DNA of 64,000 bases from Escherichia phage EcNP1: sequence record NC_054910.1, one strand, 5' to 3'. Below are positions 17,521 through 18,587 of this stretch, piece after piece (position 1 is the first letter of the stretch; every line of letters starts with the position of its first letter). The position numbers and the translations under genes were made by a program. Below the pieces are notes generated by a model, which made no database searches, was not told the origin of the DNA, and was given only the letters and a program-made list of their open reading frames with translations.

Positions 17521-18381
17521 TTACACCGCCATTTTTCCTTTAATAGGAGGGTGTGATTCGTAACCTTTAAGAACGAAATCTTTAGGCCTGAGTTTAAGAA
17601 CATATTCCAATTGTTCTTTAGTAGAAAGATAGCGGAATTTATAAGGCAATCCGCCTATTACCAGTTCACAAAGCTCTTTAGGTTCACGACGCAAAATTTC
17701 TTTACATTGTTCTACGTGATTCATATAAATATGAGTATTACCGCCAGAAAATATCAAATCTCCTGGAATAAGATTACACATCTTAGCTACAATATGAACT
17801 AATGCAGCATATGATGCAATATTAAATGGAAGACCGAGGAAAACATCTACCGAACGTTGATACCACTGCAAATCCAAATAGCCATTACGCACATTAAACT
17901 GATAGAACATATGACAAGGCGGTAATGCCATATATTTAAGTTCAGCTGGATTCCATGCAGAAACAATTTGACGCCTATCATTTGGTAGTTTTTTAATACG
18001 ATCAACAACTTCTATAATTTGGTCTACACCGCCAAAATCACGCCATTGTTTTCCATAAATTGGACCAAGTTCACCACTATGATATCCTAAATCTTTTGCT
18101 TGATTTTCGTAATTTTCATCCCAGACTGTTTTGCCTTGAATTAATGAATCATGTTGAATTAATCGCAAATCATTGACATTTATGCTTCCCGATAAAAACC
18201 AAAGGAGCTCAGCAATGCAAGCTTTCCAGGCGAGCTTCTTAGTTGTTACTGCAGGAAAACCTTTACTTAAATCCCAGCGCAATTTAGTACCAAACAAAGC
18301 AATTGTTCCTGTGCCTGTTCGGTCATCGGTTTCGTAACCATTTTCCAGGATATCTTTAATTAAAAATTGGTATTGTTTCAT
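17521..18381 (-). CDS. td: thymidylate synthase, uninterrupted
   Basis: Track ORF starts at TTG; ATG at 18381 gives [26 protein letters not shown], 286 aa as in T4 TS; no intron or I-TevI. Confidence 0.95.
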   Translation of the reverse strand: MKQYQFLIKDILENGYETDDRTGTGTIALFGTKLRWDLSKGFPAVTTKKLAWKACIAELLWFLSGSINVNDLRLIQHDSLIQGKTVWDENYENQAKDLGYHSGELGPIYGKQWRDFGGVDQIIEVVDRIKKLPNDRRQIVSAWNPAELKYMALPPCHMFYQFNVRNGYLDLQWYQRSVDVFLGLPFNIASYAALVHIVAKMCNLIPGDLIFSGGNTHIYMNHVEQCKEILRREPKELCELVIGGLPYKFRYLSTKEQLEYVLKLRPKDFVLKGYESHPPIKGKMAV

Positions 18382-18587
18382 TAGTTCATCCAAGAATATG
18401 TAGAAGGATATTTGGCAAAGTTAGGCTTATATCCTAATTTAACCATTTGTTTTGCTTTGCGAGTAAATCCTAAAGAACGCTCACCTTTAAGATATTGTTT
18501 TGGTGTCATAGGCCCTTGATGCATCTGCCGGCAAATAAAAAGAGCCATAGCATTAGGAACATCCTTAACTTTTAATTTATTGCTCAT
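18381..18587 (-). CDS. hypothetical basic protein (68 aa) inserted between frd and td
   Basis: ORF track; ATG overlaps frd stop (ATGA) and its stop overlaps td ATG (TAATG). Confidence 0.55.

Follow-up and report, generated by a model that had tools for sequence, protein, structure and literature searches.

ORF68, a small basic gene of the PHROG 9550 family in the frd-td interval of T4-like phages

The window, a 64,000-nucleotide stretch of DNA from Escherichia phage EcNP1 (NC_054910.1), carries genes for dihydrofolate reductase (frd) and thymidylate synthase (td) separated by a reading frame of 68 codons, ORF68. Its sequence and translation are exactly as quoted in the initial annotation, and it overlaps both of its neighbors. 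The ATG of ORF68 (18587-18585) overlaps the frd TGA (18586-18584) to give ATGA at 18584-18587, and its TAA (18383-18381) has one A in common with the td ATG (18381-18379), which gives TAATG at 18379-18383. The two copies of AATGA that bound ORF68 form a 5-bp direct repeat with a spacing of 206 bp. The Tequatrovirus Escherichia phage vB_EcoM_Nami matches the window at 100% identity between positions 18200 and 18800, and its record annotates ORF68 as QXV73490.1, 'hypothetical protein'. No paralog of ORF68 was found in the 64-kb window, and an Rfam scan of the whole window gave no match.

Table 1. Features of the frd-td locus in the window and the evidence for each.
Feature	Position	Strand	Basis
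frd, dihydrofolate reductase, 193 aa	18584..19165	-	ORF list; Pfam DHFR_1, E=3.5e-19; 92% aa identity to T4 Frd
AATGA, left repeat copy; frd TGA overlapping ORF68 ATG	18584..18588	-	Sequence; T4 alignment
ORF68, basic 68-aa protein, PHROG 9550	18381..18587	-	ORF list, family profile match, dN/dS, AF2 model, pI
AATGA, right repeat copy, inside TAATGA (ORF68 TAA/td ATG)	18378..18382	-	Sequence; T4 alignment
td, thymidylate synthase, 286 aa from ATG, intronless	17521..18381	-	ORF list; full-length Pfam Thymidylat_synt, E=4.5e-94
Near-identity island with Dhakavirus JS98; ORF68 and first 40-55 nt of td	18330..18595	-	Sliding identity; base-by-base comparison

The surrounding region from gene 32 to nrdB (about 13500..21800 on the minus strand of the window; L014 16269-25761 in Nami) is free of homing endonucleases. 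Both genomes are without segG between genes 59 and 32, the td intron with I-TevI and the mobE between nrdA and nrdB, and their nrdB is uninterrupted; T4 carries all four, namely segG, the td intron with I-TevI, mobE and an interrupted nrdB. The window also holds an intact nrdA.1 homolog at 16954..17280 (-), encoding 108 aa with a match to DUF4326 (E=1.3e-21) and overlapping nrdA.2 and nrdA in the same way as in T4. This gene is unannotated in the near-identical Nami record, where it falls in a gap (L014 21567-21838).

A profile search, one of the checks suggested in the initial annotation, places ORF68 in PHROG 9550 with E=1.3e-45, residues 1-68 aligning to positions 1-68 of the 68-position profile. 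By tblastn, 236 phage records contain ORF68, and in 133 the identity is at least 90%; the identical sequence is present on 332 contigs in a large protein collection. An exhaustive HMM search of 1.84 billion representatives yielded 11 clusters at 50% identity, and at 90% identity the family comprises 40 clusters. Its members are 66-108 aa long, the exceptions being two of 42 aa, one of 58 aa and one spurious repeat protein (P0026, 1402 aa), which we rejected as a family cluster since a tandem-repeat translation had been matched. A scan of IMG/VR yielded only nine further loci, mostly from known genomes. On one 8.6-kb IMG/VR contig (L025:893-1097) tblastn matches ORF68 in two segments that overlap but lie in different frames, pointing to a frameshift or an internal duplication.

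Poor conservation among relatives, combined with a lack of any translation signal, had been named as an outcome that would tell against the gene. The conservation is strong: the dN/dS of ORF68 against JS98, Marfa, CIP9 and Serratia phage 4S is 0.12-0.17 (Nei-Gojobori), with synonymous sites near saturation and dS up to about 1-1.9. Judged by these comparisons, ORF68 is a genuine accessory gene of T4-like phages, evidently under purifying selection and belonging to PHROG 9550, a small family of all-helical, basic proteins. It has also been catalogued before, as a hypothetical gene, and is widespread among T-even relatives, which makes it an instance of ordinary accessory-gene variation. The GenBank entries of the family, QXV73490.1 (Nami), YP_009850431.1 (Marfa) and YP_009855949.1 (CIP9), are all named 'hypothetical protein', and our literature search found no paper that discusses ORF68 or the frd-td slot. 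The labels 'flagellar biosynthesis protein' (PYPS2T, vB_EcoM_P8) and 'DUF4858' (vB_EcoM_Shinka) found in GenBank were rejected, as no Pfam or NCBIfam family matches at E<=10. The 2007 record of JS98 (EF469154.1) leaves the ORF68 ortholog at L006:3001-3207 unannotated, in a 202-nt gap between frd and td, although its product is 98.5% identical in amino acid sequence.

The initial annotation described the product as rich in lysine and arginine and devoid of recognizable motifs, and both statements agree with our results. ORF68 contains 13 K+R against 2 D+E, and has a pI of 10.26. Strong basicity extends to 28 of the 28 diverse family members aligned (pI 9.75-10.6), and the net charge is conserved at +8 to +17. 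Residues R20, M48, G52 and P55 are invariant in the 28-member alignment, and P11, K34, F41, L51 and Y53 are nearly so. With 28 diverse sequences as input, AF2 gives a compact predicted model (pLDDT 85.2, pTM 0.63), in which helices are predicted at residues 13-24, 29-39 and 43-49 and the N- and C-terminal segments pack together; an earlier run with 13 close sequences had a pLDDT of 55, and it was the deeper alignment that raised this value to 85. One variant (P0009) carries a five-residue insertion, TTPKH, which doubles a TPK motif in the loop that joins helices 1 and 2.

Scans of ORF68 against Pfam and NCBIfam returned zero families at E<=10, and the corresponding scans of the 28 family members gave nothing consistent. 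None of these 28 matches a PADLOC defense model at E<=1, and the PDB, searched by sequence with ORF68 alone and with a profile, revealed no relative. When the predicted model was compared with the PDB using Foldseek all matches had E > 6, while the sole match in a BFVD fold search was a member of ORF68's own family. No homing endonuclease of the GIY-YIG or HNH type, nor a fragment of one, was recognized in ORF68, in that neither a nuclease nor an associated DNA-binding domain was found by Pfam, NCBIfam, PDB sequence or fold. ORF68 is one more conserved small phage protein with a confident predicted fold and no structural relative.

Comparison of the junction with T4, T2 and T6, as the initial annotation had suggested, reveals different arrangements. 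In the T4 alignment the frd stop overlaps the td start directly as ATGA, as had been stated, and T2 and T6 carry an unrelated ORF of 115 aa (RB32ORF229c) between the two genes. A 44-nt probe for the direct T4-type junction matches 32 records only, all of them T4 or its closest kin: T4 isolates and entries together with RB55, RB59, vB_EcoM_112, HY03, SG1, G28, F1, FN, JEP6, FL12, FL18 and G2133. By contrast, the 115-aa ORF is found by tblastn at an identity of at least 90% in 363 records. It lies at L013:7973-8320 in T6 and L012:4743-5090 in T2, and has no counterpart in the window.

In each of the other T4-like genera examined, one to three small ORFs lie between frd and td. The gene order is frd-109-115-td in Merlin (Moonvirus), frd-105-td in JD18 (Jiaodavirus), frd-113-123-td in EcS1 (Kagamiyamavirus), frd-111-119-ORF68-td in CIP9 (Kanagawavirus), frd-117-ORF68-td in Marfa (Marfavirus) and frd-126-ORF70-td in Serratia phage 4S. 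The larger of these slot ORFs are distantly related to the 115-aa ORF of T2 and T6, and CIP9, Merlin and EcS1 have tandem distant paralogs of it with a C-terminal GRFxKxGxxxxF motif in common. In EcS1 a homing endonuclease gene on the opposite strand (L017:3515-4273) overlaps the 3' end of td, another sign that the neighborhood of td is a hotspot for mobile elements. The initial annotation had taken the direct frd-td overlap to be a conserved coupling site, a view that the scarcity of the T4-type ATGA and the presence of slot ORFs in T2, T6 and the other genera contradict. Within Tequatrovirus, the frd-td interval is a small polymorphic slot with three states: empty, filled by the 115-aa ORF, or filled by ORF68.

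ORF68 itself lies next to td in Tequatrovirus, in Dhakavirus (JS98, IME281, IME341), in Marfavirus and related Klebsiella phages, in Kanagawavirus CIP9, in Serratia phage 4S and in several IMG/VR genomes. In all 13 T4-family (Straboviridae/Marfavirus) loci checked it is 0-3 nt from the td start or overlaps it. As to whether the ORF is annotated at this position in well-studied T-even phages, which the initial annotation had considered fatal to its proposal, ORF68 is annotated there in many T-even genomes, and in more than a hundred T4-like genomes overall, but is absent from T2, T4 and T6. Outside the T4 family, homologs of 30-45% identity occur in Phapecoctavirus phAPEC8 and its relatives and in three metagenomic large phages, where they sit among arrays of small genes of unknown function and td is absent within 3-4 kb.

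The closeness of the window to Dhakavirus JS98 is confined to a short segment. At the nucleotide level ORF68 is 98.6% identical in the two phages, compared with 78% for frd and 76% for td, and sliding identity delimits an island of roughly 265 bp, from about 18595 to about 18330, that is about 97-100% identical and has flanks of about 75-85%. Base-by-base comparison with T4, T2, T6 and JS98 shows that the window keeps its T4/T2/T6 character through the end of frd as far as the stop codon. In td, the initial 40-55 nt are JS98-like and differ from T4, T2 and T6 at six positions, and beyond them td is Tequatrovirus-like. The pattern indicates a recent recombination in which Dhakavirus and Tequatrovirus exchanged ORF68 and the 5' end of td; one joint lies in the conserved end of frd, the other within the first ~50 nt of td. 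In profile scans, a site scan and folding, the module showed neither a homing endonuclease nor a promoter, a terminator or anything resembling a PeSL; since it carries no such element, ordinary recombination in the conserved sequences at the 3' end of frd and the 5' end of td is the simplest mechanism. The island is a clean case of recent recombination between genera.

Relative to T4, the window differs by a clean 206-bp indel bounded by AATGA. The ATGA overlap of frd and td in T4 was reportedly described in the 1980s by Purohit and Mathews, and the early T4 records M12742 and AH001329 are among the matches to the T4 junction. The 115-aa segment of T6 is flanked by a 9-bp direct repeat, TAAATGAAA (L013:7925-8350, compared with L005:6105-6120 in T4), and if the stretch from one copy to the other is deleted, the ATGA junction of T4 results. 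Either occupied state can give rise to the T4 junction by deletion, through TAAATGAAA in T6 or through the AATGA copies around ORF68 in phages of the window and Nami type. The 5' end of T4 td has substitutions of the T2/T6 type and not of the Nami type; this and the direct repeats that flank the T6 segment suggest that T4 arose from a T6-type arrangement by deletion.

The divergence of ORF68 also bears on the direction of this change. Between the window and Marfa, CIP9 and 4S, ORF68 is 70-79% identical in nucleotide sequence and td 69-72%, and this similar degree of divergence fits a long co-residence of the two genes. Given that ORF68 is adjacent to td in all of the T4-family loci examined that carry it and that the two genes have diverged to a similar extent, it is more parsimonious to assume long residence followed by loss in T4 than an insertion; the ancestral presence of ORF68 is in this sense a parsimony argument. 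Most likely, T4 lost the occupant of its slot by deletion between short direct repeats, and its frd/td overlap is most likely a deletion scar rather than an ancestral or conserved coupling site. The 'insertion' of ORF68 is only apparent, and results from taking T4 as the reference. These observations correct a T4-centric picture: the textbook frd/td ATGA overlap is a minority arrangement of T4 and its closest kin only.

The td genes of these phages also differ further downstream. Both td exons of T4 are 94-96% identical in amino acid sequence to the window td; in T6, exon 1 is 97% identical and exon 2 (L013:6055-6363) 71%. These values suggest that the 3' half of T6 td may be a mosaic, possibly through co-conversion around the intron.

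No promoter-like or terminator-like site was found on the minus strand from 18381 to 19150. Having no promoter or terminator of its own, ORF68 should share a prereplicative message with frd and td; the prereplicative timing of the frd-td message is well established in T4. We propose that ORF68 would be transcribed on the prereplicative frd-td-nrdA message and, to judge from the overlap geometry, that its most likely mode of translation would be termination-reinitiation after frd, in the order frd, ORF68, td. Translation of td would in turn be coupled to that of ORF68, such that the three proteins would be made in linked amounts. The nearest Shine-Dalgarno-like element before the ORF68 ATG is GGAA only, 11 nt away, and that upstream of the td ATG is GGA, 7 nt away; both are weak and poorly spaced. 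Both initiation regions form weaker structures than their shuffled versions (z values of +1.0 and +1.3), and we rejected coupling through the unmasking of a hairpin because neither region is structured beyond the shuffles. In the annotation of the near-identical Nami there are 56 pairs of neighboring genes on the same strand, and the genes of 22 pairs share 1 or 4 nt. Such overlaps being common in this genome, the geometry at ORF68 is the norm for T-even early genes and need not by itself signal special regulation.

Other readings of the locus have to be weighed against a long-resident accessory gene that T4 has lost. We consider it unlikely that a mobile ORF68 cassette was inserted into an ancestral, conserved T4-type frd/td ATGA site, which is how the initial annotation understood the locus. 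Such an event would account for the clean indel with AATGA at both bounds; the near-identity of the module in two genera with diverged flanks implies that it does move, and ORF68 homologs are present in unrelated phages, including Phapecoctavirus. Set against this, the T4-type junction is limited to 32 records from T4 and its nearest kin, the slot is filled by ORFs in all other genera examined, and the position of ORF68 abutting td is constant throughout the T4 family. The divergence from Marfa, CIP9 and 4S, which matches that of td at a dS of about 1-1.9, also speaks against it, and ORF68 is accompanied by no transposition or homing machinery, promoter or terminator. What survives of the cassette proposal is a discrete promoter-less module, visible as a 206-bp indel and exchanged between genera; its insertion does not, as loss in T4 is more parsimonious. 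That ORF68 has no function at all, being a chance ORF or a decaying remnant such as the DNA-binding domain of a homing endonuclease, is highly improbable. Its small size, the lack of matches in Pfam, NCBIfam and the PDB and the wealth of homing endonucleases in the T4 region (segG, I-TevI, mobE) would be in keeping with a remnant, but a low dN/dS with near-saturated synonymous change effectively refutes this. Full-length conservation over the 40 clusters at 90% and 11 at 50% identity, and a confident predicted fold with no similarity to nuclease folds and no clear similarity to HTH folds, point in the same direction.

It is also quite unlikely that ORF68 is tied to Td, whether as a subunit or modulator of Td or of a T4-type dNTP-synthetase complex, or as an obligatory translational coupler of td. 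The constancy of the junction favors such a tie: wherever ORF68 occurs in a T4-family lineage it touches or overlaps the td start, the ORFs between it and frd being variable, and only the weak SD-like GGA precedes td. However, T4, T2 and T6 are without ORF68 and yet have a functional Td, as is well established, and no td lies within 3-4 kb of the homologs carried by phAPEC8-like and other large phages. Synteny is generally conserved among T4-like phages, so adjacency is weak evidence. ORF68 would appear to be dispensable for dTMP synthesis.

Taken together, the explanation that best accounts for the locus as a whole is probably that of an accessory gene maintained by purifying selection in a polymorphic frd-td slot, lost from T4, expressed in linkage with its neighbors and acting as a polyanion binder. 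The last element is a tentative guess of ours, in which ORF68 might serve as a dispensable early accessory or host-takeover factor that binds nucleic acid or an acidic partner from host or phage; we favor it because strong positive charge on a small helical domain is the only conserved property that bears on function. A Td-tied role is the weaker alternative to polyanion binding, because ORF68 is linked to td only within the T4 family, where T4, T2 and T6 manage without it. A more far-reaching idea, which we regard as doubtful, is that ORF68 may define a structurally new family of basic three-helix proteins with a role early in infection, exchanged through joints at stop/start overlaps. If this were true, candidate roles would include binding host or phage nucleic acid, countering host defense, and tuning Td or the dNTP-synthetase complex.

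Among known systems, PHROG 9550 is the family to which ORF68 corresponds directly, with the same length and the same site upstream of td, and many of its deposited proteins are identical to ORF68. The RB32ORF229c family of T2, T6, RB3, RB5, RB32 and others resembles it in occupying the frd-td slot and in being small, uncharacterized and without a Pfam match. Members of that family co-occur with ORF68 in CIP9, 4S and Klebsiella phages; the sequences are unrelated, and, unlike ORF68, the T6 115-aa ORF does not overlap its neighbors, being separated from them by spacers of 20 nt and 44 nt, with td preceded by its own AAGG Shine-Dalgarno sequence. In comparison with the frd/td overlap of T4, the frd 3' end and the ATGA geometry are the same. 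Here the downstream partner of frd is ORF68, whose initiation context is exactly that of td in T4; the window td comes next, overlapping the stop codon of ORF68.

ORF68 does not qualify as a moron, as it has neither promoter nor terminator of its own, and start/stop overlaps tie it into the frd-td operon. Cassettes consisting of a PeSL and an ORFan, in which an early sigma-70-type promoter and a stem-loop flank the ORFan, are known from T4-type phages (Arbiol et al., 2010, PMC2839356), as are hyperplastic regions (Petrov et al., 2010, PMC2993671). ORF68 is like both in that it is small, of the ORFan type, present or absent in close relatives and exchanged between T4-like genomes. It is unlike the PeSL cassettes in that no early promoter or stem-loop stands beside it, its flanks folding no better than shuffles, and unlike a classical hyperplastic region in that its joints fall within coding sequence and at start/stop overlaps, in an operon for nucleotide metabolism. 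Were the family to be exchanged in the way outlined above, ORF68 would exemplify the shuffling of promoter-less gene modules inside operons, a process distinct from both PeSL cassettes and homing.
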